33,333 nucleotides of DNA from positions 1 through 33,333 of the forward strand of contig JAEWWD010000080.1 of assembly GCA_023396535.1 (NCBI GenBank), given 5' to 3'. The stretch's first letter is position 1, and every line of letters begins with the position of its first letter. The stretch comes from Bacillota bacterium (lineage in GTDB: Bacteria > Bacillota > Clostridia > Christensenellales > CAG-138). The notes under the pieces are model-generated. The model searched no databases, was not told where the DNA came from, and worked only from the letters and a program-made list of their open reading frames with translations. Position numbers and translations under genes: made by a program. Below are positions 12,274-29,781 of this stretch, piece after piece.

Positions 12274-12284
12274 GCAGGTCCTCC

Positions 12285-13721: not shown

Positions 13722-13762
13722 GGATATCTCTCCTTTTGATCTATCTTGCCCTTCTGATACTT

Positions 13763-13821
13763 ACAAAAAATACGGGCATATCCGCATTGTCCTTCGGTAA
13801 AAGGACCGGATCGCCCGTATT
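13763..13821 (-). terminator. Intra-operon intrinsic terminator/attenuator between glpK and the dehydrogenase genes
   Basis: Minus strand: AAUACGGGC...(inner hairpin GUCCUU/AAGGAC)...GCCCGUAUU followed by UUUUG. Confidence 0.55.
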
Positions 13822-13864
13822 CTCACGCTCAATGGGCCAACTATTTTATTATGCGGGCTGGGCG

Positions 13865-15385
<1,521 letters not shown>

Positions 15386-15421
15386 TTAACGAGCGGGAGG
15401 GAAGAGGCCCTCCAGCCCGCG

Positions 15422-15988
15422 TTACATCAGCCAGACGTCCTGGTTTGTTGTGGATATGGCCATAGCGCCGGCCTCCAGCGCGCCGATGACGTCTTCCTTA
15501 TCCGTAATCAGTCCGCCCGCCAGTATGGGAACGGATGTGACGGCGCATACCTTCCGTATGATTTTGGGCATGACCCCCGGCAGTATCTCTATGAAATCCG
15601 GGCGAACGGATTCGAGACACCCGAGGCCGGAAAGGGACATGGAATCGATCACAAACACGCGCAGTATGCTGCACAGATGCAGCTCGCGCGCCCTGCGGAT
15701 AAAGCCCTGGCGCGTTGAAATAATGCCGTCTGCTTCCGTATTCCGGTGAATGTAATCCACCGCGATTTCCTTGGAGGAGAGGCCTTCGATGAGATCCGCG
15801 TGCACCAGCGCAAACTTCCCGGCGGATTTGACGCGCTTTACGATATCGCCGATGTCGCACACGTTCCCAAACAGTATAAATACGATCTGGATTTCACCGG
15901 TCTCAAGGCAGCGCGACAGCCCTTCAAAATCCTTCACGGCGGCGATCACCGGGCTCCCTGATACCGCGTTGTAAAATTCCTGTTTCAA
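15422..15988 (-). CDS. glpP: Glycerol-3-phosphate-responsive antiterminator
   Basis: PF04309-like pattern: PVIAAVKD...VFILFG...HADLIEGL...DGIISTR...VIDSMSL...PDFIEILPGVMPKI...PILAGGLI...GAMAISTT. The probable start is TTG at 15988 with SD AGGGGG; the ORF-track start at 16066 adds an atypical extension. Confidence 0.8.
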   Translation of the reverse strand: MKQEFYNAVSGSPVIAAVKDFEGLSRCLETGEIQIVFILFGNVCDIGDIVKRVKSAGKFALVHADLIEGLSSKEIAVDYIHRNTEADGIISTRQGFIRRARELHLCSILRVFVIDSMSLSGLGCLESVRPDFIEILPGVMPKIIRKVCAVTSVPILAGGLITDKEDVIGALEAGAMAISTTNQDVWLM

Positions 15989-16406
15989 GAATTCACCCCC
16001 TGTGGTTGCGTGCGCCGGCCGGCGTTCGAAAAAAAAAGCAAGGCCAAAAGACAGTTCGTCTGTCATTTATCCCTCACTCCATGTCTCAGGGCGATCGATA
16101 TGCGGCTGTCAGTTCTTACATTTTTATAGTATCATGGAATCCTCGCAAGTCAATGAAAAAACGAACAAATTGTTTCCGGAAATACGGATTGCTTTATCAT
16201 TCCTTGCTGCAGCTTCCTCCATTACGCAAGGCGCGGTGATGATGCATACGGACAAACTATTTAGTCCGGAACGAGGGGGAGTCGAAACGGAAAAACCGTG
16301 GCTTGCGTTGCACCGCGCCTTGTAAACCTCTTCCATTTCCTCTACAATAAAGGCAGCAGCGTCTCATGGCCCCGCCGACGCCAGTTAATCACCTCAGGAG
16401 GCTGGT

Positions 16407-16991
16407 ATGACACAAAAAGAATGGGAAGCCATACTCTTTCAAAGAGGAATATCCAACTGGTGGTTAAAGCGATATTTCTACGTCAAATATCCTCATATGT
16501 ATTTGGCTGGAGCGCTGCTGATAGCGCTGATTCTTTTATCGCGTATCACATCCATCTCAAACGACAATTATTGGGTTGTTTTTCGCTTCTTGGGCATACT
16601 GGCAATAGGTATTTCAGAGAGTTTCATGAGCCGCCGTTTTTCACACGGAATGCTGGAGCAGGCTTATATCTGGAGCCTTGTACTGTATTTTTCATTTCCG
16701 GTAGCAACTGCATTCTATTTCTCGTTTTATCACTGGCTTATCGTTCTCGGAACCATTATTCTCTTCCTTGGCGCTGTTTTCAACGTGGTCTATCTGCACA
16801 AATACAAGTACCTGTTCCGTACATATTCCAAAGAAGAAATCGCGCTGGCGGTGGAAAGCTATCAGGCCCGTCTGTATACGGAGCTGGACGAAACCGCCGT
16901 ATACTGGAAGGCGAAGCAGGATGCGGCGGAGCAAAAGAAACAGGAACGGCAGGAAAAGCGGGAGCAGCGGCAGAGATTGGGCGACGAATAA
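16407..16991 (+). CDS. Hypothetical membrane protein, paralogue A (4 predicted TM segments plus a charged C-terminal tail)
   Basis: 194 aa with SD AGGAGG. The C-terminal segment LFRTYSKEEIALAVESYQARLYTELDETAVYWKAKQDA is shared with the ORF at 17867-18445. Confidence 0.6.
   Translation: MTQKEWEAILFQRGISNWWLKRYFYVKYPHMYLAGALLIALILLSRITSISNDNYWVVFRFLGILAIGISESFMSRRFSHGMLEQAYIWSLVLYFSFPVATAFYFSFYHWLIVLGTIILFLGAVFNVVYLHKYKYLFRTYSKEEIALAVESYQARLYTELDETAVYWKAKQDAAEQKKQERQEKREQRQRLGDE
16812..16926. repeat. Direct repeat copy 1 (~115 bp, about 92% identical to 18308-18422)
   Basis: Codon-by-codon comparison gives 9 mismatches in 114 nt. Weaker homology with indels continues to about 16975 and 18470. 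Confidence 0.85.
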
Positions 16992-17084
16992 AAAGTACCG
17001 TTTACTTTATTTTTTACATGTTACAATCCTTTTCTGCTATAATAAATCCAATTCACTTTGTACTACTTTATCAGGAGATTGCCG

Positions 17085-17759
17085 ATGAAACTAAACGTTG
17101 TTAATTTAGGCCGCATTGAATATGACAAAGCGTTGGATATACAGGAAAAGCTATTGGCAAAATGCCAAAACCAAGGCCTGGACGATACCCTTTTATTATT
17201 GGAACATCCAGCCGTATTAACCATGGGCATCCGGGCGGAAAAGTCGAATATCTTTCTATCGCAAGAACATCTGCAAGCATACGGCGTGCGTATCTACGAA
17301 GTTAACCGCGGCGGGGATGTTACATACCACGGCCCCGGCCAGATCGTCGGCTATCCGATATTTCATTTATCGCGGCATGGAAAAAGCATAAAAGACTTTG
17401 TGCTGAAGATACAGGAAGTATTCATACGCTTATTGACAAATGAGTACGGAATTAGCCCCCACAGGGAAGATAAAAAGTATATGGGCGTATGGGTCGGCAA
17501 TGATAAGATTACGGCGATCGGTATTGCCGTACAGCATTGGGTTACGATGCATGGTTTCGCTTTTAACGTCAATACCGACTTATCTCATTTCAATTGGATC
17601 AATCCCTGCGGCTTAACCGGAAGAGGGGTTACCTCCCTGCAAAAGCTGACGGGGACGACGCAGGATATGGATCATCTGTATCAATTGACCGCTCAATATT
17701 TTTGTGAGGTTTTTCATATGGAGGAAAACATATGCACAATAGAAAGCCTGATTGGCTGA
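17085..17759 (+). CDS. lipB: Octanoyltransferase (lipoyl(octanoyl) transferase)
   Basis: Starts MKLNVVNLGRIEY at ATG 17085 with SD AGGAG. It has RGGDVTYHGPGQIVGYPI and KITAIGI (catalytic Lys region). Confidence 0.9.
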   Translation: MKLNVVNLGRIEYDKALDIQEKLLAKCQNQGLDDTLLLLEHPAVLTMGIRAEKSNIFLSQEHLQAYGVRIYEVNRGGDVTYHGPGQIVGYPIFHLSRHGKSIKDFVLKIQEVFIRLLTNEYGISPHREDKKYMGVWVGNDKITAIGIAVQHWVTMHGFAFNVNTDLSHFNWINPCGLTGRGVTSLQKLTGTTQDMDHLYQLTAQYFCEVFHMEENICTIESLIG

Positions 17760-17840
17760 AAATCAAAGCATGAGGCAACCCTGTAACCCTTAAAAGAGCT
17801 ATTTTTGAATACCGTTACAAGCACTGCAGCCTGCTCATGC
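17732..17840 (+). pseudogene. Decayed 5' remnant of a second lipA
   Basis: ATG CAC AAT AGA AAG CCT GAT TGG CTG AAA ATC AAA GCA TGA reads MHNRKPDWLKIKA*, matching the LipA N-terminus (intact copy: RKPEWLR). In a shifted frame, LNTV at ~17805 resembles the LHTVCEEA motif. It overlaps the lipB 3' end as in lipB-lipA operons. Confidence 0.45.
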
Positions 17841-17866
17841 GGTTAAGCAATCAATGGAGGCCAGCT

Positions 17867-18445
17867 ATGACTCGAAAAGAACAGGACGCCCTGCTCGCCC
17901 AAAGCGGAATGCCCAATAAGTGGCTGCGATTTTACATGCGCTACCTGCTGCTTTTTCAGATAATATTCGCATTTGTACCCATGGTACTGTTCATCCCACT
18001 TCTATTGCCATTGATATCGGATAACCCATTGCTTCTTTTGCAGTTTACTGTAATATTGACCATGGCCGTGCTGGCAATTTTGTCATACTACTATTCTCTT
18101 CGGGGACTGTCGTTCAAGGCCTATTGTTGGAATCTCGCATATCTTTGCTATATCCCGGCAGCCTACACAGAGTATTTGATAGCTATTGCTTCAAGCCGAT
18201 ATGCACTGAACAGTGTCATATCCATAGGCCTGTTTATCGCCCCCCGGTTGCTTTTGTGTATTCTTTGGATTGTACCCAACATCATATATCTCCGCAAACG
18301 AAGGCAACTGTTCCGTACATATTCCAAAGAGGAAATCGCAGCGGCGGTTGAAAGCTATCAGGCCCGACTGTATATGGAACTGGACGAAACCGCCGCATAC
18401 TGGAAGGCGAAGCAGGATGCGGGAGCAAAGAAACGGGATAAGTAG
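17867..18445 (+). CDS. Hypothetical membrane protein, paralogue B
   Basis: Starts MTRKEQDALLAQSGMPNKWL at ATG 17867 with SD GGAGG. Its N-terminal motif is similar to paralogue A (MTQKEWEAILFQRGISNWWL) and its C-terminal module is nearly identical. Confidence 0.6.
   Translation: MTRKEQDALLAQSGMPNKWLRFYMRYLLLFQIIFAFVPMVLFIPLLLPLISDNPLLLLQFTVILTMAVLAILSYYYSLRGLSFKAYCWNLAYLCYIPAAYTEYLIAIASSRYALNSVISIGLFIAPRLLLCILWIVPNIIYLRKRRQLFRTYSKEEIAAAVESYQARLYMELDETAAYWKAKQDAGAKKRDK
18308..18422. repeat. Direct repeat copy 2 (pairs with 16812-16926)
   Basis: See copy 1. Confidence 0.85.
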
Positions 18446-18518
18446 GAAAAGCTGAAGCAGCGGCGGTAAGGATGAACGTGCCTCCGGCGCATTCGCCGAA
18501 GACACGAATTTTTCGTAA

Positions 18519-18800
18519 TCATCCAAGTTCATTGCCAATCGCATACTCCAATAAAATCTTTGGAATATCCGATGGACTTGACCATCGGGGAAGTGCACCG
18601 GCATATTCCTCAAAGTTTGCCCCATATTTATCAATATGCGAATTTGGTAAATCTATTTTCCTGGAAAACAGAAACTCTCCACCCCGGAAATAGTATATTT
18701 CAAAGTATTCCGCCGTATCAGGCTGAAAGGTGATCCGGACATCTCCATTCTTAAGTATCATCTCCGGGTTGCTTTTGTAAAATTTCATAGGATCATCCAA
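18519..18800 (-). CDS. Hypothetical protein (93 aa)
   Basis: The only open frame in a lower-GC segment. It overlaps the upstream small ORF by 16 nt. No motif was recognised. Confidence 0.3.
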   Translation of the reverse strand: MDDPMKFYKSNPEMILKNGDVRITFQPDTAEYFEIYYFRGGEFLFSRKIDLPNSHIDKYGANFEEYAGALPRWSSPSDIPKILLEYAIGNELG

Positions 18801-19012
18801 CGCCCATCCAATGCCAATGGCCGCTTGTATATATACGCCTGACCTGCGCTGTAGCGGGTGCCCGCAGCAGCGCCGCCTGCCTTTGCCGTGGGTATCTGAA
18901 GAGTGGAATCAGTGACTGAATTTCTTTCACGATACGCGGCTTCCGTCTTAGGTCCCCATATCCCATCTACTGCAACCCCAAGCTCTCGCTGCAACGCCCT
19001 CACTCCCAACAT
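18785..19012 (-). CDS. Small protein with a peptidoglycan-binding-like motif
   Basis: 75 aa. LQRELGVAVDGIWGPKTEAA resembles the PG_binding_1 core (LQ..L....DG.FG..T..A). It may be a fragment. Confidence 0.35.
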   Translation of the reverse strand: MLGVRALQRELGVAVDGIWGPKTEAAYRERNSVTDSTLQIPTAKAGGAAAGTRYSAGQAYIYKRPLALDGRWMIL

Positions 19013-19293
19013 CCTGAATACCGTCAGGGGGCCGAAACCCTTCCAAGTAATAACGCTGTGACATGAATCTTGCCTCCATCCTAAGATTTTTGGAAGTACT
19101 GCCTGTATTCAGCATACATCCTTGTGATGGGGGTTTTCACGCTCAGAAAAATTCTGATTGCTCATAATGTACAAAGAAAGGCGATGAAAATTGCCTGCCG
19201 GAATGGTACAGCCCTGCTACTCGGGGTATGATTGATTTACTGGACAGGGATACTATATACGTATGAAAATGATTTCAACGGGAGGGAACGCCC

Positions 19294-19482
19294 ATGTCAT
19301 CGGAGAAAACGCCGAACAAGCTGATCAACGAAAAATCCCCCTACCTTCTCCAGCACGCCCATAACCCCGTGGACTGGTACCCGTGGGGCGCGGAGGCGTT
19401 TGAGAAAGCGACGACCGAGGACAAGCCCATATTCCTTTCCATAGGATATTCCACCTGCCATTGGTGCCATGTATCTAAATAG
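19294..19482 (+). pseudogene. Truncated 5' fragment (62 codons) of a yyaL-like thioredoxin-domain gene
   Basis: [62 protein letters not shown]. It duplicates residues ~11-60 of the full-length gene at 21936 and terminates 3 codons after the homology ends. Confidence 0.8.
19330..19472. repeat. Left direct repeat bracketing the AT-rich cassette
   Basis: 19330-19445 is identical to 21969-22084 (116 bp). A 7-nt divergent patch follows (atattcc vs ctacgcg), then 20 more identical nt (19453-19472 = 22092-22111). Confidence 0.9.
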
Positions 19483-19819
19483 AACCAAGGAGATGATATG
19501 TAATTAGTAAACCCACCTCTACAAAATATGAATGCACTAAGTGTGAAGCTAATCTCATATAATATTGACCGACGATGGATTATTTGGCGAGCTTAGCTTA
19601 TAATAAGATTGCTAAAAACATACTCATGCTTGTAATGATCAAAATTAAAGAAATCCCGAAAGAAGAAAAAGAATACAGCAGAAACTGGGTAATTGTTGCG
19701 GTTAACAGATTTTAACTATTAGCTGTAGGAACCGAGCGTAAAGAATTTTTCGAGATGTTTGGCCTATTACTTCTAAATATATGGTAACTATTATTATCGC
19801 TTGATACCTAAAAAAAGAC

Positions 19820-20395
19820 ATGAAACGGGGGATAGAAGTGCCTATTTGTCTGGTTGACTTTTTGGAAGAAGCGAAGACACCATTAAAGAACTTCATTAGA
19901 GATCGCGTGTCTAATGAGGAAGACAGTCAAGATATTCTTCAAGATGTTTTTTTGAAACTAATAAGCAACGTGGATAAATTGATCGACACGCAGAAGGTTC
20001 ATGCTTGGATATATAAGACCGCCAGAAATGCAATCATTGACTACTATCGTAAGAATAATAAGAATTTAGACTATAAGAGCCTACCAGAAGAGCTACCGCT
20101 TATTCTGGATGAAGATTTGACGTCAAATAAAGAAATTGCTTCTTGCCTAAAAAATATGACAGAAAAACTTCCGGAAAAATATAAACAGGCCATTAAAATT
20201 ACAGTTTTTGAGAACCATACCCAAAAGGAATATAGTGAGATGGCTGGAATTTCTCTTTCTGGAGCAAAGTCGCGGGTGCAACGCGCAAGGAATATTCTTA
20301 AGGAAATGGTACTAGGGTGCTGCAGCTTAGAGTTTGACGGTCTGGGCAATATAATTAATTACAAAACAAGAAGCCCAAACTGCAAATACTGTTGA
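19820..20395 (+). CDS. ECF-type RNA polymerase sigma factor, SigZ-like, with a Cys-rich C-terminal extension
   Basis: It has region 2 (DILQDVFLKL...WIYKTARNAIIDYYRK) and region 4 (GISLSGAKSRVQRARNILKE), then CCSLEFDGLGNIINYKTRSPNCKYC, as recalled for the SigZ family (TIGR02959). The true start may be GTG 19838, which has GGGGGA upstream. Confidence 0.8.
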   Translation: MKRGIEVPICLVDFLEEAKTPLKNFIRDRVSNEEDSQDILQDVFLKLISNVDKLIDTQKVHAWIYKTARNAIIDYYRKNNKNLDYKSLPEELPLILDEDLTSNKEIASCLKNMTEKLPEKYKQAIKITVFENHTQKEYSEMAGISLSGAKSRVQRARNILKEMVLGCCSLEFDGLGNIINYKTRSPNCKYC

Positions 20396-20430
20396 TAATT
20401 TTGGTTAAAGATGCGTCCTATTTCGCCTAA

Positions 20431-20467
20431 GTACGTCTTTATAGATAGACGTACTTTTTTTGAGAGG
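20431..20467 (+). terminator. Rho-independent terminator between the sigma gene and arsM
   Basis: aagtacgtc-tttatagata-gacgtactt followed by TTTTTT, ending about 10 nt before the arsM SD. Confidence 0.6.
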
Positions 20468-20478
20468 AGGTGTATCTT

Positions 20479-21294
20479 ATGAAAAACAACAAAGAAAATG
20501 TTCGCAACGCGATTCGTAAAAACTATTCAGAAGTTGCCTTAAATAGCTCTGGAGGGCAACGTTGCAGCTGTGGATGTAGTTGTGAAGGAGCACTGATCGA
20601 TAAGCAAGAAGCGTGTGCGAAATTAGGATATTCTGAAGATGATCTATTAAATGCACCGTCAGAAGCCAATATGGGGTTAGGATGCGGTAATCCTATTGCG
20701 ATCGCAGCACTTAAAGAAGGTGAGACTGTCCTTGACCTTGGGTGCGGCGGAGGTCTTGACTGCTTTCTTGCCAGTCGCCGGGTTGGAGAATCGGGTTATG
20801 TAATTGGTGTTGATATGACACCGGATATGATTGCACTTGCAAGAAGCAATGCTGTAAAGAGCGGATATACGAAAGTTGATTTCAGATTAGGTGAAATTGA
20901 GCATTTGCCTGTTGCGGACGAATCAGTGGATGTTATTATTTCTAACTGTGTGATTAACTTATCTTTAGACAAGGAGCAGGTATTTAAAGAGACATATAGG
21001 GCTTTAAAACCTGGTGGGAGACTATCGATATCGGATGTTGTAGCCACATCAATTATTCCCGAAACAATGAGACGAGATCTGCAGCTCGTTGCATGTTGTA
21101 TTGCCGGTGCTGAGCATGTTGATGTCGTAAGAACGATGCTAAAGAATATGGGGTTCAGTGATATTCGCTTGACACCAAAAGAAAACAGCAGGGAGATTAT
21201 AAAGTCATGGGGGTTCGGTAAAAACATTGAAGACTATGTCGCATCGTTTATTATCGAAGCAAAAAAACCGGGAATCAAGGAAGAAAAAGGATAG
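20479..21294 (+). CDS. arsM: Arsenite S-adenosylmethionine methyltransferase
   Basis: ATG 20479 with SD GAGAGGAGG. It has the SAM motif VLDLGCGGG and the three ArsM catalytic-Cys contexts GLGCGNP, SNCVINL and ACCIAGA, plus an N-terminal CSCGCSC cluster. Confidence 0.85.
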   Translation: MKNNKENVRNAIRKNYSEVALNSSGGQRCSCGCSCEGALIDKQEACAKLGYSEDDLLNAPSEANMGLGCGNPIAIAALKEGETVLDLGCGGGLDCFLASRRVGESGYVIGVDMTPDMIALARSNAVKSGYTKVDFRLGEIEHLPVADESVDVIISNCVINLSLDKEQVFKETYRALKPGGRLSISDVVATSIIPETMRRDLQLVACCIAGAEHVDVVRTMLKNMGFSDIRLTPKENSREIIKSWGFGKNIEDYVASFIIEAKKPGIKEEKG

Positions 21295-21744
21295 ATGATT
21301 ATGACAACGCTTAAAATTGAATGGAGGCACCTTGACGTAGAAGGTGATACTTGTGACCGCTGCTATGATACGGGTGAAAATCTTGCAAATGAAGTAAAAA
21401 GATTAAAAAGGGCTCTTGAGCCTCAGGGTATTGTTATAGAGCTTACCGAGACCAAACTTGATGATAATCAAATCCCGCAATCGAATACCGTACTTTTTAA
21501 CGGAGTTCCCATTGAAGACATACTCGATATAGAAGTTTATGAAAACTATTGCGAATCCTGTACTGCTTTACTGGGAAAAGCAACGCATTGCCGGGCGGTT
21601 AAATTTGAAGGTAACGATTACGATGATATCCCCGCTAAAGCAATCCGCCAGGCGACGTATAAAGCTTTAGGAATAGAAGAAAAAAAGGAAGTATCAAAGA
21701 ATTCCGGTTGTTGCTGTAACGCCGATAGCGGCTGTTGTTGCTAA
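21295..21744 (+). CDS. Small Cys-rich protein, DUF2703-like
   Basis: 149 aa that abuts the arsM stop (TAGATG). It has CDRC and CESC pairs and a C-terminal GCCCNADSGCCC tail. The family assignment is from memory only. Confidence 0.55.
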   Translation: MIMTTLKIEWRHLDVEGDTCDRCYDTGENLANEVKRLKRALEPQGIVIELTETKLDDNQIPQSNTVLFNGVPIEDILDIEVYENYCESCTALLGKATHCRAVKFEGNDYDDIPAKAIRQATYKALGIEEKKEVSKNSGCCCNADSGCCC

Positions 21745-21755
21745 CAAATTACAGA

Positions 21756-21846
21756 ATAACAGTAGGCAGCTGGATGCTGCCTACTGTTATTAATAGGCGA
21801 TCAATCTATAAGTGACGAGCGGGGAATCCCGCTCTTTATTTATTCG
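21756..21846 (+). terminator. Two consecutive terminator hairpins at the end of the cassette genes
   Basis: Hairpin 1: ataacagtaggcagc-tggat-gctgcctactgttat (21756-21790). Hairpin 2: gagcggg-gaat-cccgctc followed by TTTATTTATT (21817-21846). Confidence 0.65.
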
Positions 21847-21935
21847 ATTCTGTAATCATTGCAAACAGCCGTTTGATTCCTGCTTCTCAGGGGGAATATA
21901 ACGCTATACGACCCAACAATCAGAAAGGTAAGCCT

Positions 21936-23966
21936 ATGGAAACTAAGCACGAGAACCGTCTTATTCATGAAAAATCCCCCTACCTTCTCCAGCACGCCCA
22001 TAACCCCGTGGACTGGTACCCGTGGGGCGCGGAGGCGTTTGAGAAAGCGACGACCGAGGACAAGCCCATATTCCTTTCCATAGGCTACGCGACCTGCCAT
22101 TGGTGCCATGTCATGGAACGGGAGTCCTTCGAGGATGAAGAGGTTGCCGCGCTGCTCAACGAAGGCTTTGTCTGCATCAAGGTGGACCGCGAGGAGCGGC
22201 CGGACATCGATTCGGTATATATGGACGTCTGTCAGGCGTTCACCGGGCAGGGCGGATGGCCGCTGACCATCGTGATGACGCCCTCGCAAAAGCCGTTTTT
22301 CGCCGCCACGTATATCCCCAAAGAACAAAGGGGGTCTTACCCCGGCATGCTTAGTCTTCTGCCGGCCTTGCTGGAGCTGTGGCGCACGGACAGATCACGC
22401 GCAGAAAAACAGGGCGAGGCGGCGGCAGACTTCTTGCTGGAGCAGGCGCAAAGCAAGCCGCGCGCGCACGCGCCGGACGAAGGGTTGATCCGCGGCGCGG
22501 CACTGCAGCTTGGCCGCTCCTTCGATGCGCAGTACGGCGGGTTTTCAAATGCGCCTAAATTCCCCATGGCGCACATGCTGCTGCTGTTGCTGCGCTACGC
22601 GCGGCGGACGGGCGAACAATCCGCGCTGAAAATGACGGAGGAGACCCTCGTCCACATGTACCGCGGCGGCATGTTCGACCATATCGGCGGCGGGTTTTCC
22701 CGGTATTCCACCGACAGGCGCTGGCTGGTGCCGCATTTTGAAAAAATGCTCTACGACAACGCGCTGCTGCTGTGGGCGTATACCGAGGCGTACGCAGACA
22801 CGGGTAAGGAGCTGTACGGGTTCATCGCAAAACGCGTCATTTCCTACGTACTGCGCGAGCTGCGCGGCGATACGGGCGGCTTTTTCTGCGGGCAGGACGC
22901 GGACAGCGAAGGAGTGGAGGGCAAATACTACCTCTTTACGCCGCAGGATGTCGATACCGTACTGCCAGGATACGGCGGGCATATCTGCGATTGGTTCGGC
23001 ATCACGCAAGCGGGCAATTTTGAGGGCGGCAGCATCCCCAACCTGCTGCACCATAAACAAACGGATGTGCCGGACGCAGAAACGCAGGCGCAGACCGAGC
23101 GGCTGCTCGCGTACAGGGATACGCGCGTAAAGCCCGCCACCGACGACAAGATATTGACGGCATGGAACGCCCTCATGATAGCAGCGCTGTGCAAGGCTTA
23201 TCGCGCGTTCGGCGATGAAACGTATCTTGATGCCGCGCAAAAGGCGCAGGCCTGCATAGAAAAATACCTCGCCAAGCCAAACGGCGACCTGTTTGTCCGC
23301 TACCGGGACGGCCGCGCCGATCACGACGGGCAGCTTGCGGACTACGCGTTTTACGGCGTCGCGTTGCTGGAGCTGTACGCCGCCACGGCAGACATATCCT
23401 TCCTTACGCGCGCGGCCTATATCGCGCGGCGCATGCTCGCGTTGTTCGGCGACGAGGAGGACGGCGGGCTGTTTGCATATTCCGCGGAAGGGGAACAGCT
23501 CATCTCCCGCCCCAAGGAGACCTACGACGGCGCAATGCCCTCCGGCAATTCCGCCGCGGCAATGCTGCTTGTGCGCCTTTCCCGCCTGACGGCCGACCCG
23601 TATTTTATGGAACAGGCGCGGCAACAGCTCGATTTCGTAGCTTCGCACGCGGCGCAAGCGCCCACGGGGCATTGCTTTGCCCTGCTGGCCGTGGCCGAGT
23701 ATGTATCGCCGGGCGCGGAGCTCGTCGTGGTCGGCCGGGACGAGCACGCCTGGAACAATGAACTCCGCTCCATAGTCCCCGTCAACGCGGATACCGCCGT
23801 GCTGGTCAAAACGCCCTCAACAGCCGAAGCGCTGGACTCTCTCGCGCCCTTTACGTCGTCCTATCCCTTCCCCGATCGGGGCACGGCGTATTACGTCTGC
23901 AAAAACGGCGCCTGCCAGGCGCCGGTATTCGACATCAACGCGTGCAAGACGCTGCTTGCACAGTAA
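21936..23966 (+). CDS. Thioredoxin-domain protein of the YyaL/DUF255 family (N-terminal Trx-like domain plus C-terminal alpha/alpha-toroid)
   Basis: 676 aa from ATG 21936 (SD AAAGG). [25 protein letters not shown]...[24 protein letters not shown]...[11 protein letters not shown] is a hallmark of YyaL-like proteins. The first ~11 codons are AT-rich, like the cassette. Confidence 0.9.
21969..22111. repeat. Right direct repeat bracketing the AT-rich cassette
   Basis: See the left repeat (19330-19472). Confidence 0.9.
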
Positions 23967-24005
23967 GATTTTTTGCAATGCTAAGACGGCGGTTAACTCG
24001 TTTAA

Positions 24006-24035
24006 AGAAATTCCCTTGGGGAATTTCTTCCTCCA
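24006..24035 (+). terminator. Terminator after the yyaL-like gene
   Basis: agaaattccc-ttg-gggaatttct followed by TCCTCCATTGTT (a moderately T-rich tail). Confidence 0.5.
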
Positions 24036-24091
24036 TTGTTCATTTTACATTTTTCATTGTTCATTGCGCTGCGCGCAAAGCGCGCAGCGCC

Positions 24092-25048
24092 CTACTCCCC
24101 GCGCAGCAGCGTATGCAGCACGCCGTCCATCACCCGACCGTTTTTATACACGCCGCGCCTTTTTACGCCCTCGCGCGTGAAGCCCGCTTTTTCCAGCACA
24201 CGGCAGGAAGCGGAGTTTCCGCTGAACACCTCGGCGTAGATACATTCAATATCAAATGTCGCGAACGCCAGATCGCAAATCTCCCTCACGGCGCGCGGCA
24301 TGATGCCGCGCCCCCAGTACGGCTCGGCCAGCCAGTAGCCGATCTCCGCCGTTTTTTCGTAAACATCGGAGCCCAAAAATACGCCGATGCTGCCTGCCGG
24401 CGCGCCGCCGATTTCTATTGTCCGAATGATGCAGCGGTCGCCGTCCCGGCCCATGCTTCTCTCAATATACTGCTGCGCGTCCGCAAGCGAATATGGGTGG
24501 GGAAACGCATTGCGCAGGTTTTGTGCAATCTTGGGATTGTCCGCAAGCAGCCATATGCGCTCCGCATCCTCCATATGCCAGGGCCGCAGGGTAATCTCAG
24601 GATGCATGTCGTAGCGCATGGGCGTATACAGAATGCCGTTCTGCATCCGTTCCCCGCCCTCCGCGATAAACCCCAGTTTTTCATAAGCGGGCAGGCCGTA
24701 GCGCGAGGCGTTGACGGTGATTGCCGCCGCGCCCGCCGCATCGGCCTTTTTCTTCAGCTCGCTGAACAGCGCGCGCGCAACGCCGGTACGGTGGTGCTCC
24801 GGCGCGACAAACAGCAGGCTGATATGGTCCGCGCCGCGCACCGCCAGGACGCCAACCAGCACCCCCTCCCGCACATAGCCGAATACAGAGCTCATTCCTT
24901 CCACATCCGTGCCGACGAACTGATCTAGAAACTCGTAAAACGTCCGCACTCCTTCCGGCGGGTACTCCGGCGCAACATACGCGTCAAACACGCGCCGAAC
25001 CAGCGACGCGGCCTCGGGCAAATCCGTACGTTCCAGCCTGTGCACCAT
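24092..25048 (-). CDS. Tandem-GNAT N-acetyltransferase (second domain RimJ/RimL-like)
   Basis: Starts MVHRLERTDL at ATG 25048 with SD AGGAGG. There are two acetyl-CoA-binding-like cores (VAPEHHRTGVARALF and LAEPYWGRGIMPRAV). Confidence 0.75.
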   Translation of the reverse strand: MVHRLERTDLPEAASLVRRVFDAYVAPEYPPEGVRTFYEFLDQFVGTDVEGMSSVFGYVREGVLVGVLAVRGADHISLLFVAPEHHRTGVARALFSELKKKADAAGAAAITVNASRYGLPAYEKLGFIAEGGERMQNGILYTPMRYDMHPEITLRPWHMEDAERIWLLADNPKIAQNLRNAFPHPYSLADAQQYIERSMGRDGDRCIIRTIEIGGAPAGSIGVFLGSDVYEKTAEIGYWLAEPYWGRGIMPRAVREICDLAFATFDIECIYAEVFSGNSASCRVLEKAGFTREGVKRRGVYKNGRVMDGVLHTLLRGE

Positions 25049-25130
25049 ACTGCTCGCCTCCTGTTTCTTATCAACATATCTCACAAACAGCCTGTCCGCT
25101 CCGGCGGGGAATCATGGACAGTACCCGCGC

Positions 25131-25412
25131 TCATTGCGCCAGCAGGTAAATGGCTATACCTGCCTGCAGCAGGCAGAAAAGAGGTACCAATATCCGAAAA
25201 AGCGTATGTCTGGTTTTATGCCGGAACAGCAGCATGCCCAACAGCGCGCCCAAAGCGCCGAACAGCGCCGCCGCAAGCAGCAGCGTGCGCTCCTTTATTC
25301 TCCACTCCCCGCGCTGCGCGCGCCGCTTATCCGCACCGTAGAGAGCGAACGTACCTATATTATAAAGTATGAAAGCCGCAAATAAAAACAGGGCAAACCC
25401 GCTCAGCCGCAT
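25131..25412 (-). CDS. DUF1294 membrane protein
   Basis: 93 aa. The pattern YGADKRRAQRGEWRIKERTL...GALGALLGMLLFRHKTRH is typical of DUF1294. Confidence 0.75.
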   Translation of the reverse strand: MRLSGFALFLFAAFILYNIGTFALYGADKRRAQRGEWRIKERTLLLAAALFGALGALLGMLLFRHKTRHTLFRILVPLFCLLQAGIAIYLLAQ

Positions 25413-25588
25413 ATATTCCCTCCCGCATGGCGACGCTTTTTTGTATCATATCATGAACGCCGTTTATGAAAAAGCGCACATCGTTTCTTTGTCAAACATC
25501 CCGCCTGTTGCGCGGCATGTTTTGGGCCGGACGGAACGGGGTATAGTAAGCCTGAGCAATATCCCTAACGGGCTAAGGAGGGCGCTTT

Positions 25589-26542
25589 ATGGCTGTTATC
25601 TATTTGGCTGGCGGCTGCTTCTGGGGGCTGCAAAAATATATCGGCGAAATTCCCGGCGTGCTGAATACCATGGTTGGCTACGCGAACGGCGGTACGCAGA
25701 ATCCCAGTTATGAGGAGGTCTGCACAGGCTCCGGCCATACGGAAACCGTACGCGTGGAATACGACGCCGAAAAGCTGCCCCTCGCCTTTTTGCTGGAGCT
25801 CTTTTTCGAGGTCATAGACCCGCTTTCCGTCAACAAACAGGGGCACGACGTCGGCGTGCAGTACCGCACGGGCATTTATTATGAAAACGAAGCCGACCGG
25901 CCTGTCATTGAACAGGCGCTTGCCGGTTTGTCCCATCGTCTGGGCCGGCCCGTCGCCGTCGAATGTGCGCCGCTTCTTCAGTTCTTCCCGGCGGAAAACT
26001 ATCATCAGGATTATCTGGACAAACATCCCACGGGATACTGCCACATCAGCCGCGACAAAATCAAACAGGCGAAGTACGCGCGCGTGGACCCTGCGCGCTA
26101 CGCGGCGCAGGAAGAATCGGCGCTCAAACAAACGCTCTCCCCTTTGCAGTACGAGGTTACGCAGCACGCCGCCACGGAACCGCCCTTTCAGAACGAATTT
26201 CACGACGATTTCCGCGAGGGCATTTACGTGGACGTCACGACGGGCGAGCCGTTGTTCTCCTCTACAGATAAATTTCAATCCGGCTGCGGCTGGCCCAGTT
26301 TCAGCAAGCCCATCGATCCCTTCACGGTGCGCGAACGCCGGGATAATTCCTTCGGTATGCGGCGCACGGAAGTAAGAAGCCGCGTCGGGGATGCGCATCT
26401 GGGACATGTATTTCCGGACGGACCGCGCCAGGCGGGAGGGCTCCGGTACTGTATCAACAGCGCCGCACTGCGCTTTATTCCAAAAGACGACATGGAGCGC
26501 GAGGGGTACGGCGAATATCGTTCGTTTTTTACAAAAGCATAA
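25589..26542 (+). CDS. msrAB: Bifunctional peptide-methionine sulfoxide reductase MsrA/MsrB
   Basis: 317 aa with the MsrA motif GGCFWG, MsrB CGWPSF and RYCINS, and SD AAGGAGGG. Confidence 0.95.
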
Positions 26543-26574
26543 CCCGAAATTTGCAGAAATTTGAAAAAAATTGA

Positions 26575-26603
26575 TTGACAAGCTTGTCCACACAGTATAT
26601 ATT
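26575..26603 (+). promoter_or_regulatory. Strong candidate sigma-A promoter, TTGACA-N17-TATATT
   Basis: TTGACA at 26575-26580 and TATATT at 26598-26603, about 20 nt upstream of riboswitch aptamer 1. Confidence 0.55.
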
Positions 26604-26621
26604 AATTTGTACCAGATAGGG

Positions 26622-26703
26622 TGAAAAAGGCAAAGTCGGTGAAAGCCGGCGGCGCAAAGCTACAGGGCCTACCGGTCAATGCGACCCAGGGCAGCCAGTT
26701 GCC
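26622..26703 (+). promoter_or_regulatory. c-di-GMP-I (GEMM-I) riboswitch aptamer 1
   Basis: aaGGCAAAgucgg-UGAAAG-ccggcgGCGCAAAGCuaCAGGGCCuaccggucaaugcgacccaGGGCAGCCAGUUGCC. It matches the remembered GEMM-I blocks: GGCAAA, a GNRA-type capped hairpin, RCGCAAAGC, and CAGCCRGYUGCC. Confidence 0.8.
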
Positions 26704-26747
26704 AAACCGCTTGGTGCAGGATAATTTGCCTGTGCTGTATTAAGCGT

Positions 26748-26789
26748 AACCGCAACTGACCAAGGGTCGGCTGCGGTTTATTTATTTCT
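26748..26789 (+). terminator. Intrinsic terminator (expression platform of aptamer 1)
   Basis: aaccgcaactgacc-aagg-ggtcggctgcggtt followed by TATTTATTTCT. The 5' arm gcaactg is complementary to the aptamer 3' strand cagttgc (26696-26702). Confidence 0.7.
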
Positions 26790-26830
26790 ATTCGGAAACA
26801 CGCGTTAAGTTGTGCGGAAGGAGGGGCGGT

Positions 26831-27985
26831 ATGGTCATCGTAGCGGCTGGGCTCTGCGTGTTGCTCATGTTCGGCGCCTTCGCGGTGGATATGAGTACGC
26901 TGTATGTAGAAAACACGCGGCTGCAGACGGCGCTGGACGCCGGTGTGCTGGCCGGCGCATCCATGCTGCCCGATACGGACGCCGCTATTTCAGAAGCGAG
27001 GTCCTACATACGCGCCAACGGCTTTTCTACGGATAACATTACATTCTCTTTTAAAAACGACGACATGATCATCACAGCGGAAGGAAAGGAAACCGTGGAC
27101 GCGGGCTTCTCCCGCGTGATGGGATATGCGAAACACGACGTGGCTGCCACAGCCAGCGCGGAAAAATACATAACCTCCGCCACGGGCCCCTTTGCGTATT
27201 TGCTGTTCAGCGGCGATCCCAATCATACGCTCAACCTGGGCGGCCGCTTTGATATTGCCGGCAGCGTGCACGCCAACGGTTCCCTGTATGCATCGCCGTC
27301 ATATGGGGTTATACAGGGCGCGGCAGAAGCGTGCAAAACAGTATATTGCAATGAATCGACCATGACAGTGGGTACCGAAGCGCCCGAGGCAGACTTTATA
27401 GATATGCCCGATTTCACATCCGTGGTAGCGGGGGTGCTTCCCTCAAGTTATGATACTGTTCTGACTCCCGCCCAAGTCGCAGATCCCTGGTGGAAGCAGA
27501 CTTTTACCGGCAATACGTATGTGTCGGGAAATTGCAGGATATCCAACCAGTGTATCGTGAACGGCGTGTTGTATGTGAACGGCGACCTTACCATCGACGG
27601 CGGATCCCCCGTATGCGAACTCAACGGCACCATATTTGCCACAGGCAAAATCACTTTTAACAACACGTTTGTGGGTACAGGCAACGTGTTCGCCAACGGA
27701 AATATAACATTCCAGGGCGGCGGCATGCAATTGCGCGCAACCGATTCAGTCTGCGCCTACTCCGCGAACGGAAATATTTATATGGTCACCAACAGCACGA
27801 CGGTGACTGGCATTATTTATGCGCCCAAAGGCAGTATTACTGTCCAAGGAAATAACACAACGTATATCGGAAGTATTATAGGCAATCGTATCGTCGGCGT
27901 GCCGGCCAACCTGACCATGCGGGCGCCGGACGAACCCTTCCCGTTTGCTGGCGGCGGTGAGGAAGCCATACGGCTTGTCAGATAA
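26831..27985 (+). CDS. TadG-like pilus-associated protein (Tad_N/TadE-G-like N-terminus plus repeat-rich C-terminal region)
   Basis: ATG 26831 with SD GGAAGGAGGGG. The N-terminus VIVAAGLCVLLMFGAFAVDMSTLYVENTRLQTALDAGVLAGA matches the TadG N-terminal pattern. The C-terminus has iterated G/N-rich strands (NGDLTIDGG, ATGKITFNN, ANGNITFQGG, PKGSITVQGNN). Confidence 0.75.
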   Translation: MVIVAAGLCVLLMFGAFAVDMSTLYVENTRLQTALDAGVLAGASMLPDTDAAISEARSYIRANGFSTDNITFSFKNDDMIITAEGKETVDAGFSRVMGYAKHDVAATASAEKYITSATGPFAYLLFSGDPNHTLNLGGRFDIAGSVHANGSLYASPSYGVIQGAAEACKTVYCNESTMTVGTEAPEADFIDMPDFTSVVAGVLPSSYDTVLTPAQVADPWWKQTFTGNTYVSGNCRISNQCIVNGVLYVNGDLTIDGGSPVCELNGTIFATGKITFNNTFVGTGNVFANGNITFQGGGMQLRATDSVCAYSANGNIYMVTNSTTVTGIIYAPKGSITVQGNNTTYIGSIIGNRIVGVPANLTMRAPDEPFPFAGGGEEAIRLVR

Positions 27986-28057
27986 TGACGAAAATTTTTA
28001 TATATTGGCGTTTGAAAGCGTTTTGTTCGGTTTAAGTATAAATACCAAAGCGATATT

Positions 28058-28136
28058 TATAATGGCAAAGCTGCCGAAAGGCAGTGACGCAAAGCTACAG
28101 GGCCTAAAGGCGCAAGCCTATGGCAGCCAGTTGCCG
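28058..28136 (+). promoter_or_regulatory. c-di-GMP-I (GEMM-I) riboswitch aptamer 2
   Basis: auGGCAAAgcugcc-GAAA-ggcagUGACGCAAAGCuaCAGGGCCuaaaggcgcaagccuauGGCAGCCAGUUGCCg. Confidence 0.85.
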
Positions 28137-28167
28137 CTTGATTGATCACAGCCGCCTGTGATATTGT

Positions 28168-28202
28168 GGCAACTGCGCAAAGCGGTTGCCTTTCGTGTTT
28201 TT
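28168..28202 (+). terminator. Intrinsic terminator (expression platform of aptamer 2)
   Basis: ggcaactgcgc-aaa-gcggttgcc followed by TTTCGTGTTTTT. The 5' arm ggcaactg is an exact complement of the aptamer 3' strand cagttgcc (28128-28135). Confidence 0.75.
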
Positions 28203-28271
28203 GCAGCCGCGGAAATAGTACGAACACGAATTTGCCGCCTCTTACAGGCGGCGGGACCAAGGGGAAAGGGG

Positions 28272-28487
28272 ATGATAGCGTATAACGGGCGGTCAAACGC
28301 CAATGGCTTCGCCAACTCCGGAGCGTTTGCCGCGATATTTCCCGGAAGGATGCTGCAAGGCTGTTTGGGCGGCGCGCTCATCGGCCGGGTATCTCAACGA
28401 CGATCAGAGCCTGCACGGCAGGCGCAAGCTGCGGTCCGCGCTAGGCGGACAGTTTGGACCAGACCGACGGCCCCTATGGGGCAATGA
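28272..28487 (+). CDS. Candidate small ORF (71 aa) between riboswitch 2 and riboswitch 3; speculative
   Basis: The ATG is preceded by AAGGGGAAAGGGG. The product is MIAYNGRSNANGFANSGAFAAIFPGRMLQGCLGGALIG... followed by an Arg-rich tail. No homology was recognised, and codon bias is weak in the second half. Confidence 0.15.
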   Translation: MIAYNGRSNANGFANSGAFAAIFPGRMLQGCLGGALIGRVSQRRSEPARQAQAAVRARRTVWTRPTAPMGQ

Positions 28488-28517
28488 AACTGCTAGTTGC
28501 AAAAGTACTCTTCAACG

Positions 28518-28598
28518 ATAATGGCAATGCAGCCGAAAGGCTGTCTGCGCAAAGCTACAGGGTCTAAAGGCCTCACGGCCCATGACAGCCAGCTGCCG
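28518..28598 (+). promoter_or_regulatory. c-di-GMP-I (GEMM-I) riboswitch aptamer 3
   Basis: auGGCAAUgcagcc-GAAA-ggcugucUGCGCAAAGCuaCAGGGUCuaaaggccucacggcccaugaCAGCCAGCUGCCg. Confidence 0.8.
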
Positions 28599-28810
28599 AA
28601 TGAAGCAACGCTTTTGTTTACGGATACGTCCCCCGTACTCCCACACGGGCGGACAGCGTCCAATCCCTGATAAGGAGCGGCGCACATCGTAGACTTTAAG
28701 CCGGCATTCGGTAAACGAGTGGTGGCTTTTCCTTTTCCGGCCCCCGCATGGGCGGGAAAGGGAAGCTTCAGGAAGGCAATCTCTCTTTTACATCCAAAGG
28801 AGGCCCAGCG

Positions 28811-29458
28811 ATGCTCATACTCCTGTTCGCCCTTGCGGGTGCTATCTGCTCCGTCCCCATCCGGCTGCTGACACGGCAGCTGGTGGCGGCGCGCGGCGGA
28901 CGCCCCGACGAAAGCCGCCTGTTGAGCGGCGTGCTTTCGGCGGCCTTGTTTACGGCATTGGGCGCGCTGGGCTTCGCTCTCTTATCCGCCGTAATCCCCA
29001 TGACGGATATTGTCCGGCTCATACAGTTCCTGCTGGTATTCCTGATACTCTTGAGCCTGAGCGCGGTGGATATCGTCGTCCGGCGCATCCCCAACGAGCT
29101 GCTGCTGGCGCTGATACTCGTATATGCGCTTGGGCATACGCTCAATGTGGGCTGGTCCGGAATAACCACAAATCTCTTGGGGGCGGCCATCGCAGCCATA
29201 TTGTTCACGCTTCCAGCCCGTCTGGGTCTTCAGATCGGTTGGGGCGATATCAAGTACGCGGTCGTGATAGGCTTCTGCTTTGGTCTCGCGGGGCTTTTAC
29301 AGGTAACGCTGGTGATGGGCCTGGGGTTAGGCCTGTACGCCGCTTACCTCTACATCAGCCGCCGGGGGGGGCTCTTTACCTCCGCCGCGATCGGCCCGTA
29401 CCTGTCCTTAGGCGCGGTGGCCACAATGGTGTTTCCAGTGTTCACTACTATTTTTTAA
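28811..29458 (+). CDS. tadV: Prepilin peptidase, A24 family (TadV/CpaA-like)
   Basis: ATG 28811 with SD AAAGGAGG. It is polytopic with two catalytic-Asp contexts (SAVDIVVRRIPN and GWGDIKYAVV). Confidence 0.85.
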   Translation: MLILLFALAGAICSVPIRLLTRQLVAARGGRPDESRLLSGVLSAALFTALGALGFALLSAVIPMTDIVRLIQFLLVFLILLSLSAVDIVVRRIPNELLLALILVYALGHTLNVGWSGITTNLLGAAIAAILFTLPARLGLQIGWGDIKYAVVIGFCFGLAGLLQVTLVMGLGLGLYAAYLYISRRGGLFTSAAIGPYLSLGAVATMVFPVFTTIF

Positions 29459-29505
29459 CGCAACCACAACTATATAATCAACAGAATTTGAGAGGAGATA
29501 CAGGA

Positions 29506-29697
29506 ATGAAGAAGTTCATGGATATACTTCGCGATGAAAACGGCCAGGGCATGGTGGAGTACGGCCTCATCCTGGGCCTGATCGCACTCGTGGCCATTGC
29601 TGCGGTTGTATTGCTCGGCGATGGCGTAACTGACATCTTCACTGGTGCAAAAGACAAACTGGATACGGTTCCCGGCGTAGAACTTCCTGCTTCCTGA
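29506..29697 (+). CDS. flp: Flp/Fap-family type IVc pilin
   Basis: 63 aa with SD GAGAGGAG. The product MKKFMDILRDENGQGMVEYGLILGLIALVAIAAVVLLG carries the Flp motif (G/XXXXEY followed by a hydrophobic stretch). Confidence 0.85.
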   Translation: MKKFMDILRDENGQGMVEYGLILGLIALVAIAAVVLLGDGVTDIFTGAKDKLDTVPGVELPAS

Positions 29698-29716
29698 TCA
29701 TAGCAATGGTGACTTT

Positions 29717-29752
29717 GAATGTCCGCCCGTGCACAGGCGCGGGCGGACATTC
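29717..29752 (+). promoter_or_regulatory. Perfect 13-bp stem-loop just after flp (possible attenuator or mRNA-stability element)
   Basis: gaatgtccgcccg-tgcacaggcg-cgggcggacattc. There is no U-tract after it. Confidence 0.4.
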
Positions 29753-29781
29753 TACCCCTTAGGAGAAAGGAGGGCCGCGAT

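Follow-up and report, generated by a model that had tools for sequence, protein, structure and literature searches.

How can a group of foreign genes without a recombinase of its own come to lie inside the 5' end of a gene and leave that gene in one piece? The question is raised by a stretch of 33,333 nucleotides (nt) from a Bacillota bacterium (Clostridia; Christensenellales; contig JAEWWD010000080.1 of assembly GCA_023396535.1, positions 1 to 33,333), here called the window. In it an AT-rich cassette with an arsenic-methylation operon separates a short left copy of the 5' end of yyaL from a full-length right copy of the gene, which encodes a thioredoxin-domain protein of the DUF255 family. 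We consider it probable that the foreign cassette entered the 5' end of yyaL by one homologous crossover, and that the homology arm it used was an attL joint, i.e., one of the two joints (attL and attR) that a large serine recombinase (LSR) makes between the host attachment site, attB, and the element attachment site, attP.

Structure of the insertion and its empty site

A position-by-position comparison found 19330-19445 identical to 21969-22084 over 116 nt. The 7-nt patches that follow, 19446-19452 and 22085-22091, differ at four of seven positions and read, with flanking bases, GGATATTCC on the left and GGCTACGCG on the right. Another 20 nt are identical at 19453-19472 and 22092-22111, and similarity ends at 19473 and 22112. 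A repeat finder returned the whole as a direct repeat of 159 nt with 93% identity (19314-19472 and 21953-22111). The left open reading frame (ORF; 19294-19482) encodes 62 residues ending in CHWCHVSK and stops three codons past the end of homology, while the right ORF (21936-23966) runs in frame through a complete DUF255/YyaL protein of 676 residues. GC content is 0.34-0.44 over 19400-21999 versus 0.59-0.66 in yyaL. Domain search and repeat finder detected neither an integrase nor a transposase nor a terminal inverted repeat between the two copies, and no recombinase domain was found in the cassette or anywhere in the 33-kb window. The same structure is present in another assembly (L001; ENA ERZ28601602 scaffold_258), which is 99.985% identical over 20,268 nt and whose three mismatches all lie far outside the feature. 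The observation is real: duplication and cassette are confirmed as described.

A relative with an empty site was found in L242 (ENA ERZ27275380 k141_25322), which is 93-96% identical to the window, lacks the cassette and has an uninterrupted yyaL. The two are syntenic over glpK, glpP, LipB, a small ORF, yyaL, GNAT, DUF1294, MsrAB and Tad. The yyaL product of L242, P0245 (677 residues), falls in the 90% cluster of the window's YyaL and starts exactly like the left stump, with the first 52 residues of the left copy identical to those of this full-length protein. Positions 19162-19472 of the window align to 6146-6456 of L242 (95.8%) and 21969-31352 to 6314-15696 (93.0%), the two flanks overlapping by 143 nt on L242 (6314-6456). 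Compared with L242, the window equals the empty site plus an insert of 2,496 nt (19473-21968) plus a 143-nt duplication.

The three-way alignment assigns each part of the two copies to one of two parents. Ahead of the 116-nt block, L242 and the left copy differ at 2 of 74 nt, which marks the left copy as native here; the right copy is unrelated. From its native upstream region and first 12 codons the left copy passes into the non-native patch GGATATTCC and then into foreign DNA; the right copy passes from foreign upstream DNA and 11 foreign first codons into the native patch GGCTACGCG and the native gene. The four differences between the left 116-nt block and L242 would be in line with strain-level divergence. 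The core has one synonymous difference, at 22106 (T in both window copies, C in L242). At the protein level, native N-terminal residues accompany GYA in P0245 and P0247, in agreement with the DNA markers. Relative to L242, the two copies have exchanged the markers that border the 116-nt block, which points to a single reciprocal crossover inside it; from these reciprocal markers, read against the empty site, we regard it as shown that the insertion came about by one crossover in this block.

An earlier note on this DNA had described the 116-nt identity, the 7-nt patch and the 20 further identical nt, which direct sequence comparison bears out, and had read the two copies as reciprocal chimeras from a single homologous crossover within 19330-19445. 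The chimerism is seen directly in the alignment with L242, and the markers place the crossover where the note had put it. The note had also called for a comparison with related genomes lacking the insertion and had named ancient, independently conserved paralogues as the case that would refute it: L242 shows the predicted empty site, and the paralogue case fails, L242 being contiguous across the site with an uninterrupted yyaL. The low GC of the cassette was likewise seen, but the AT-rich zone is broader than claimed, at ~16000-21950, and extends a further 3 kb leftward. That no recombinase is present holds for cassette and window, yet the attL-type joint described below implies that a recombinase acted earlier, elsewhere. 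Terminators at the end of the cassette were found as hairpins at 21755-21791 and 21817-21834, and the promoter suggested for the rebuilt yyaL (TTGATT/ATATAA) was not picked up by a consensus scan.

The CXXC codons of yyaL as an attachment core

Among the more distant relatives of YyaL, several have MERESFED as their very first residues or a foreign N-terminus fused at TCHWCH. In their DNA, a 53-codon ORF from the 5' part of yyaL is followed by a stop, a spacer of 16-21 nt and then ACNTGYCAYTGGTGYCAYGT with the rest of the gene, and in every lineage of these relatives GC drops sharply directly upstream of this 20-mer. No second 5' fragment was found within 10 kb upstream of the split genes. Two other readings of the relatives that start at MERESFED were rejected. 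A selenoprotein with TGA in the CXXC motif does not fit, both Cys codons being intact and a 16-21-nt insert lying upstream, and programmed bypassing or frameshifting over the spacer is ruled out by spacer lengths of 16, 19, 20, 20 and 21 nt and by the stop codons.

The IMG/VR database was scanned for the 20-mer, which returned 28 loci, among them 12 attP-like, 3 attL, 5 attR and 2 intact yyaL. The attP-like loci, from at least five families, consist of arm, core and arm, with yyaL on neither side; the attL form consists of the yyaL 5' part, core and arm, and the attR form of arm, core and MERESFED. As judged from these loci, attP spans ~50-56 bp, with imperfect inverted arms around the common core (11-14 of 18 positions matching; p<=0.0065 in four of the seven loci tested). 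Read off the sequences, the attL arm of one locus (L107) is complementary to the attR arm of another (L109). Homologues of one LSR, at 34-46% identity, occur in 20 of the 28 loci, mostly ~50-300 nt from the core. The domain architecture of this LSR is Resolvase, Recombinase and Zn_ribbon_recom, and its nearest relatives in cultured phages, the LSRs of Staphylococcus SPbeta-like phages, are 33% identical. In L082, a syntenic relative of the window, rearranged pieces of an LSR pseudogene lie at 9065-9773, just upstream of the junction. The 20-mer is taken as an LSR attachment core because of the inverted-repeat arms, the adjacent LSR homologues and the LSR remnants of L082. For this family, comparison of the junctions shows the CXXC-coding 20-mer of yyaL to be the common core of both attB and attP. 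In the literature library searched, yyaL was not connected with attB or with a serine recombinase in any paper found.

Many LSR elements carry a conserved module before attP, consisting of a ribosome-binding site (often AAGGAGGTGATGCCC), a 53-60-codon copy of the target's 5' end that ends in IGYS, and a stop. It is seen in L098 (4487-4735), L114 (~5730-5935), L099, L097 (~7520-7710), L109 (~13180-13470), L082 (9801-10000), L084 (9801-10000), L085 (8543-8748) and L087 (1076-1274), and its place is between attP and the LSR gene, in a reading frame other than that of the target. Possible roles for the element-borne copy are those of a homology arm or of translational coupling. Lysogens with this module have a split yyaL, with an ORF of 53 residues, an ORF of 613-620 residues from MERESFED, and the CXXC codons untranslated. 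In L083 (9895-10095) the 5' ORF has an additional 1-nt frameshift. YyaL entries of 613-646 residues in the databases (P0003, P0004, P0008, P0013, P0033) are attR products of decayed LSR elements.

Two further observations concern elements at this site. Upstream of the split yyaL of L085 (1-8748) and L086 lies a low-GC island, an element with defence cargo at the same site, whose genes comprise an LSR, a small resolvase, a type IIG restriction-modification gene (N6_Mtase/Eco57I) and a helix-turn-helix gene; its left end lies past the end of the contig. One sample, IMGVR_UViG_3300045988_*, holds eight viral contigs of 96-157 kb (L096, L100, L101, L105, L106, L115, L118, L120) with the same LSR and an attP with the yyaL core, which suggests that an abundant family of large temperate phages targets yyaL.

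Left and right junctions of the cassette

At the left junction of the window, the core is followed by an element-side half-site, the P' arm (Table 1). It pairs as an inverted repeat with the P arm of L082 at 12 of 18 positions at zero shift (shuffle p=0.005), and local alignment against an AT-rich background gives p=0.0008. Nowhere else in the window, on either strand, does the L082 arm find a better match. A 15-mer of the P' arm returned 120 chance matches in IMG/VR, none of them beside a core. We infer from core and arm that the left joint of the window is an LSR attL joint that came from an earlier host, and the flank that follows it (19473-19826) is probably a remnant of the element's left end.

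The right junction is of another kind. It consists of yyaL codons, core and yyaL codons in frame, without a P arm, and is thus attB-like, unlike the true attR junctions with a P arm in L082, L084, L085, L087 and L097. No attR was found in the window, and no reverse-complement copy of the P' arm is present in it.

Recurrence in sister genomes

Two sister genomes, L088 (91% YyaL identity) and L089 (86%), show the same layout with other contents. In both, an old 5' fragment of yyaL is broken at the same core and followed by a different small AT-rich cassette and by an in-frame gene with new first codons. The cargo is a rubrerythrin/EncFtn-like gene in L088 and an ORF of 127 residues in L089. The left fragment of L088 is ~74% identical to the right copy, that of L089 is truncated at its 5' end, and both are older than the left fragment of the window. 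The left break of L088 reads ACCTGCCACTGGTGCCA|GTTTCG, with a downstream arm that resembles the L084 arm (p=0.0035); that of L089 reads TGCCACTGGTG|TAGGAG. Because the left patch of the window, GGATATTCC, resembles GGGTATTCC of L088 and L089, a close relative was probably the previous host of the joint.

Among the members of one 90% protein cluster, at least six versions of the first 6-13 YyaL residues occur. The layout of L088 and L089 and these varied first residues lead us to regard the start of yyaL as a recurrent landing and displacement site in this lineage. N-termini are hypervariable among P0001, P0002, P0242 and P0245-P0249, with the remainder of the protein at least 86-90% identical, and P0242 also has an AT-rich-coded upstream extension.

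Proposed course of events

We propose that in an earlier step an LSR element had integrated into yyaL of an earlier, related host. In such a lysogen, the element's 5' fragment and the host's 5' end would form direct repeats flanking the prophage, and recombination between them would free a circle with a 5' fragment, core and P' arm. Because it would have no proper attP, this circle could re-enter by homology only. A later deletion would have removed the LSR gene and most of the element. The DNA that finally arrived would have been a circle of ~2.64 kb. In order, it would have carried AT-rich upstream DNA with the first 11 codons of a yyaL gene, codons 12-50 in a form (nearly) identical to that of the host, the codons GGA TAT TCC, the 20-nt CXXC-coding core, the phage-type P' arm, 354 nt of AT-rich DNA, and the operon for an extracytoplasmic function (ECF) sigma factor, ArsM and DUF2703 with its terminators. 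Its yyaL segment would have ended right after the CXXC codons because this segment was an attL joint.

A single RecA-type crossover in the 116-nt stretch would place this circle in yyaL of the chromosome. Only the 62-codon stump would then be driven by the native promoter and first codons, and the full gene would be restored in frame, with foreign signals ahead of it and 11 foreign codons at its start. With neither an LSR nor an attR at hand, the cassette would now be fixed save for recombination between the 116/143-nt repeats, the only route of loss, which would restore a functional gene.

Several points weigh against this account. No LSR remnant was found by tblastn in the window, L088 or L089, so that the link of this joint to an LSR comes from the core and one arm match (p ~0.001-0.005). 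The core joined to the P' arm (TGGTGCCATGTATCTAAATAGAACC) had no match in a sequence-pattern search, and no circular form, donor or parent phage with the P' arm was found among plasmids, phages, IMG/VR and the Joint Genome Institute (JGI) metagenomes. Release of the circle by recombination between host and element 5' fragments is a model, no hybrid circle having been observed, and the later deletion is a further assumption. The 116-nt identity needs explaining, either by a very close previous host or by a conversion tract associated with the crossover. In all sister alleles seen, the foreign part of the right copy is limited to the first 6-12 codons, a bias that the proposed course does not predict outright. 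Both assemblies are derived from metagenomes, and the structure may have arisen in another strain and arrived by ordinary flanking recombination.

A wider version of the proposal is that gene movement of this kind, free of a recombinase, is recurrent, with LSR-derived circles re-entering relatives by homology in a '5'-end displacement' of yyaL. LSR elements with a copy of the target's 5' end would bring flanking homology with them when they integrate, and recombination by the host would free circles of 5' fragment, core, P' and cargo; on each entry yyaL would be remade in working form with another promoter and N-terminus, its former 5' end being set aside. We put this forward tentatively and regard it as rather doubtful; if true, it would explain both the hypervariable starts of yyaL and the different small cargoes of the window, L088 and L089.

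Alternative explanations

The alternative that fares best, though improbable, starts from LSR integration at this very site. The element would have split yyaL, gene conversion from the left copy would have removed the P arm and brought the gene back into frame, and deletions would have taken out the remainder of the element. A split yyaL with an element-borne 5' fragment, a stop and a P arm is common in relatives, selection would favour repair, and the 116-nt identity resembles a conversion tract. A tract that removes the P arm must, however, also cover the patch and make the two patches identical, whereas these differ at four of seven positions with their versions swapped, and gene conversion is unable to swap markers reciprocally.

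Somewhat less probable is direct site-specific integration of an integrase-less element by an LSR acting in trans, with attL and attR still to be seen today. In its favour are a core that LSRs do target and a left junction of attL form, but a crossover inside the 20-mer should leave the native patch in the left copy, where the patch is non-native, the native one being found in the right copy. Nor does the right junction, attB-like and in frame, look like the attR of the five relatives named above.

An assembly artefact, in which an empty chromosome and a separate molecule sharing the 116-nt stretch were threaded together, is about as improbable as integration in trans. It is true that these are metagenome assemblies, that some assemblers use k-mers shorter than this exact 116-nt repeat and that reads were not available. 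Against this, the two assemblies have different contig ends and three mismatches elsewhere and share the structure, reads of 150 nt span the repeat, and an artefact would need a 2.6-kb circle without a replication gene at chromosome-like coverage. The copies in L088 and L089, which have the same layout, are moreover only ~74% alike, too dissimilar to confuse an assembler.

An illegitimate or transposition-like insertion with a 143-nt target duplication, to which the window formally corresponds, or a pair of old paralogues is the least credible alternative: there are no terminal inverted repeats and no transposase, the last 27 nt of the left copy carry foreign markers, so that the incoming DNA held yyaL sequence, the 11 foreign codons are homologous to yyaL N-termini (NRLIH), and paralogues are excluded by the empty site of L242. 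The homologous crossover through an attL-derived arm thus remains the explanation that we favour.

Cargo genes and other features of the window

Coordinates and evidence for the parts of the insertion are collected in Table 1.

Table 1 Parts of the yyaL insertion, with the evidence for each
Feature	Position	Strand	Evidence
Native yyaL upstream region with ribosome-binding site, now joined to the 62-codon left fragment only	19162-19293	+	Within the 19162-19472 block, 95.8% to L242 6146-6456; last 38 nt in three-way alignment
Left copy, displaced native yyaL 5' end, chimeric: native to ~19445, incoming DNA from the patch on	19294-19482	+	Pfam Thioredox_DsbH 2.6e-29
Left 116-nt identity block, interval of the homologous crossover	19330-19445	+	4 differences from L242 (96.5%)
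Left-copy patch GG-ATATTC-C, non-native, probably from incoming DNA	19446-19452	+	4 positions off GGCTACGCG of L242 and right copy
Core (O) of attL-type joint, ACCTGCCATTGGTGCCATGT, encoding T-C-H-W-C-H-V	19453-19472	+	Same 20-mer (ACNTGYCAYTGGTGYCAYGT) is the core of attP/attL/attR in IMG/VR contigs
Putative P' arm, element-side half-site, ATCTAAATAGAACCAAGGAG	19473-19492	+	Inverted-repeat partner of the L082 P arm beside the core
Left flank of insert, AT-rich, non-coding	19473-19826	+	No match in the cargo's nearest relatives or fetched loci (blastn, tblastx); no Rfam family
Cargo gene 1, ECF-type sigma-70 factor, 185 residues from GTG, Cys-rich C-terminus	19838-20395	+	Pfam Sigma70_r2, Sigma70_r4_2; 185-residue gene called in L001
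Cargo gene 2, ArsM-like arsenite S-adenosylmethionine methyltransferase, 271 residues	20479-21294	+	Pfam Methyltransf_31 1.7e-36; homologues annotated as arsenite methyltransferase
Cargo gene 3, DUF2703 protein	21301-21744	+	Pfam DUF2703 1.1e-37
Two terminator-like hairpins closing the cargo operon	21755-21834	+	16-nt perfect inverted repeat 21755-21791; GAGCGGGGAATCCCGCTC then T-run 21817-21834
Foreign upstream region, ribosome-binding site and first 11 codons now serving full-length yyaL	21835-21968	+	Unrelated to L242 counterpart; AT-rich third positions
Right 116-nt identity block	21969-22084	+	Sequence comparison, repeat finder, three-way alignment
Native patch (GGCTACGCG context) and native 20-nt core, intact attB-like site with downstream codons	22085-22111	+	Patch identical to L242
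Full-length YyaL/DUF255 thioredoxin-domain protein, 676 residues	21936-23966	+	Pfam Thioredox_DsbH 2.9e-76; 91% to P0001, 86% to P0002

The cargo (19827-21744) is 88.7% identical at the nucleotide level to chromosomal genes for a sigma factor and ArsM-DUF2703 in an organism of ~42% GC (L091-L093), and this similarity ends at the gene boundaries. The nearest ArsM homologue other than the window's own is P0122, at 88% identity, and no record of the exact ArsM protein was found in a look-up. In the nearest relatives (P0122, 88%; P0124, 77%) ArsM and DUF2703 form one fusion of 421-422 residues, of which DUF2703 makes up the C-terminal half. In the window (21286-21303) the TAG at 21292-21294 divides the two, with an ATG immediately after, and in P0122 the peptide EKRGEMIM spans the joint; the split could be a nonsense mutation or natural. 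Pairs of a sigma factor and ArsM are common in low-GC Firmicutes.

Searches for the source of the cassette gave little. Neither the plasmids of PLSDB nor the phages of INPHARED matched the cassette in a megablast search, blastn and tblastx of the insert flanks against all fetched loci found nothing, and a degenerate pattern of the donor N-terminus found nothing in JGI metagenomes. The idea that the cargo is the donor's native DNA upstream of yyaL is unsupported, none of 80 ArsM loci having yyaL or the core nearby. Likewise, none of 80 loci in species representatives of the Genome Taxonomy Database (GTDB) joins sigma factor, ArsM or DUF2703 to yyaL, and the nearest YyaL among these representatives, from Faecalispora jeddahensis, is 54% identical.

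Rfam and tRNA scans of the window gave nothing above threshold, and genes for tRNA or tmRNA are absent. Otherwise the window consists of housekeeping genes: a glycerol operon, a betaine ABC transporter, lipoyl synthase, MsrAB and Tad pilus genes. Arsenic-related host genes lie nearby: an ArsP_1 permease at 9286-10227 of the window, and ArsR, ArsP, DUF2703 and a thioredoxin at 78-2474 of L088. Because the host has such genes, the imported ArsM and DUF2703 add to an existing arsenic toolkit.

About 2.5 kb upstream of the insertion, a second structure (16197-18464) resembles an insertion with duplication. Two paralogous unknown ORFs, orf194 (16407-16991) and orf202 (17837-18445), flank LipB (17085-17759), and their 3' ends share 146 nt at 86% identity (16781-16926 and 18277-18422). 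L242 has LipB and an orf202-like gene without orf194, L088 has an orf194-like gene only, and together these two gene orders seem to make up the one present in the window. Short minus-strand ORFs with fragments of the peptidoglycan-binding domains PG_binding_3/1 (18519-19012) separate orf202 from the native promoter of yyaL; they match L242 weakly (68%) and look like a gene remnant.

Discussion

Campbell-type insertion-duplication is known from suicide-plasmid mutagenesis and from defective transducing phages such as lambda dgal, which integrate via the host DNA that they carry. The window shares its hallmarks: a direct duplication flanks the insert relative to the empty site (the 143-nt overlap on L242), the copies are reciprocal chimeras of resident and incoming sequence at the DNA level and, in P0245 and P0247, at the protein level, no site-specific recombinase is required, and the event is reversible via the repeats. 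It differs from those examples in being a natural event in an uncultured Clostridia-like genome, in its ~143-nt arm that ends in an attL joint, in having rebuilt the target with foreign signals and in its recurrence in sister genomes with other cargo.

LSRs are known to integrate elements into genes, as with SPbeta SprA in spsM, the skin element's SpoIVCA in sigK and Listeria A118 in comK. The yyaL-targeting family resembles these prophages in domain architecture, in an attP near the LSR gene and in an attB within an ORF, and differs in its target, a CXXC-coding 20-mer, and in the 53-60-codon copy of the target's 5' end with a stop that many members carry before attP. In the window, the attL order of host arm, core and P' arm is present, but the window has an attL-type joint only, without an LSR in cassette or window and without attR, and the sequence left of the core in this joint is non-native at the patch.

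Other classes of mobile DNA fit less well. A cis-mobilisable (CIME-like) element would have two functional att sites, and here the left end is attL-type and the right end attB-like. The window holds no integron integrase, and the sole strong inverted repeat near the cassette end is the terminator hairpin. An insertion sequence or transposon is not indicated, there being no transposase, no terminal inverted repeats and a 143-nt duplication with foreign markers; nor is a tRNA-targeting island, the window having no tRNA or tmRNA gene.

Elements of the SXT/R391 group enter the 5' end of prfC and supply a new promoter and N-terminal coding sequence. As in the window, the promoter and first codons of the target are replaced, the gene stays functional and the old 5' end is left behind. 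SXT uses its own tyrosine integrase, whereas the cassette of the window has no recombinase and would have entered by homologous crossover. A study of rhs and contact-dependent inhibition (CDI) loci describes displaced gene tips and orphan fragments left behind (PMC2935791). There, too, a conserved part of the gene receives variable new ends by recombination and the former ends are displaced, so that termini are hypervariable within a species; in that account it is a C-terminal toxin tip with an immunity gene that moves (PMC2935791). In the window it is a 5' end with unrelated cargo, and one boundary is set by a phage attachment site.

The underlying processes are known. Three things are new here: an LSR attachment site within yyaL, the probable origin of the homology arm from an attL joint, and the repeated displacement of 5' ends. 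As a target for LSRs, the CXXC codons of the widespread yyaL/DUF255 gene are new, and attP, attL and attR can be read from public contigs, which may be of use for the recombinase toolbox and for calling prophage boundaries. Annotation would change as well: 'truncated' YyaL proteins of 613-620 residues would be attR products, and fragments of 53-65 residues attL products.

For the host, yyaL remains a complete gene, and the change to its product is confined to the first 11 residues, a poorly conserved part. The rebuilt gene is preceded by the cargo terminators and by foreign upstream DNA, and the native promoter would now drive a 62-codon stump that includes the CXXC motif. The locus is a clean natural example in which comparison with an empty site lets the markers of both parents be told apart. 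An arsenic-methylation module from an organism of ~42% GC would have entered a genome of ~60% GC without a recombinase of its own, by way of ~143 nt of homology. If, as we think probable, this homology came from the scar of a phage integration, attachment joints can later act as portable homology arms.

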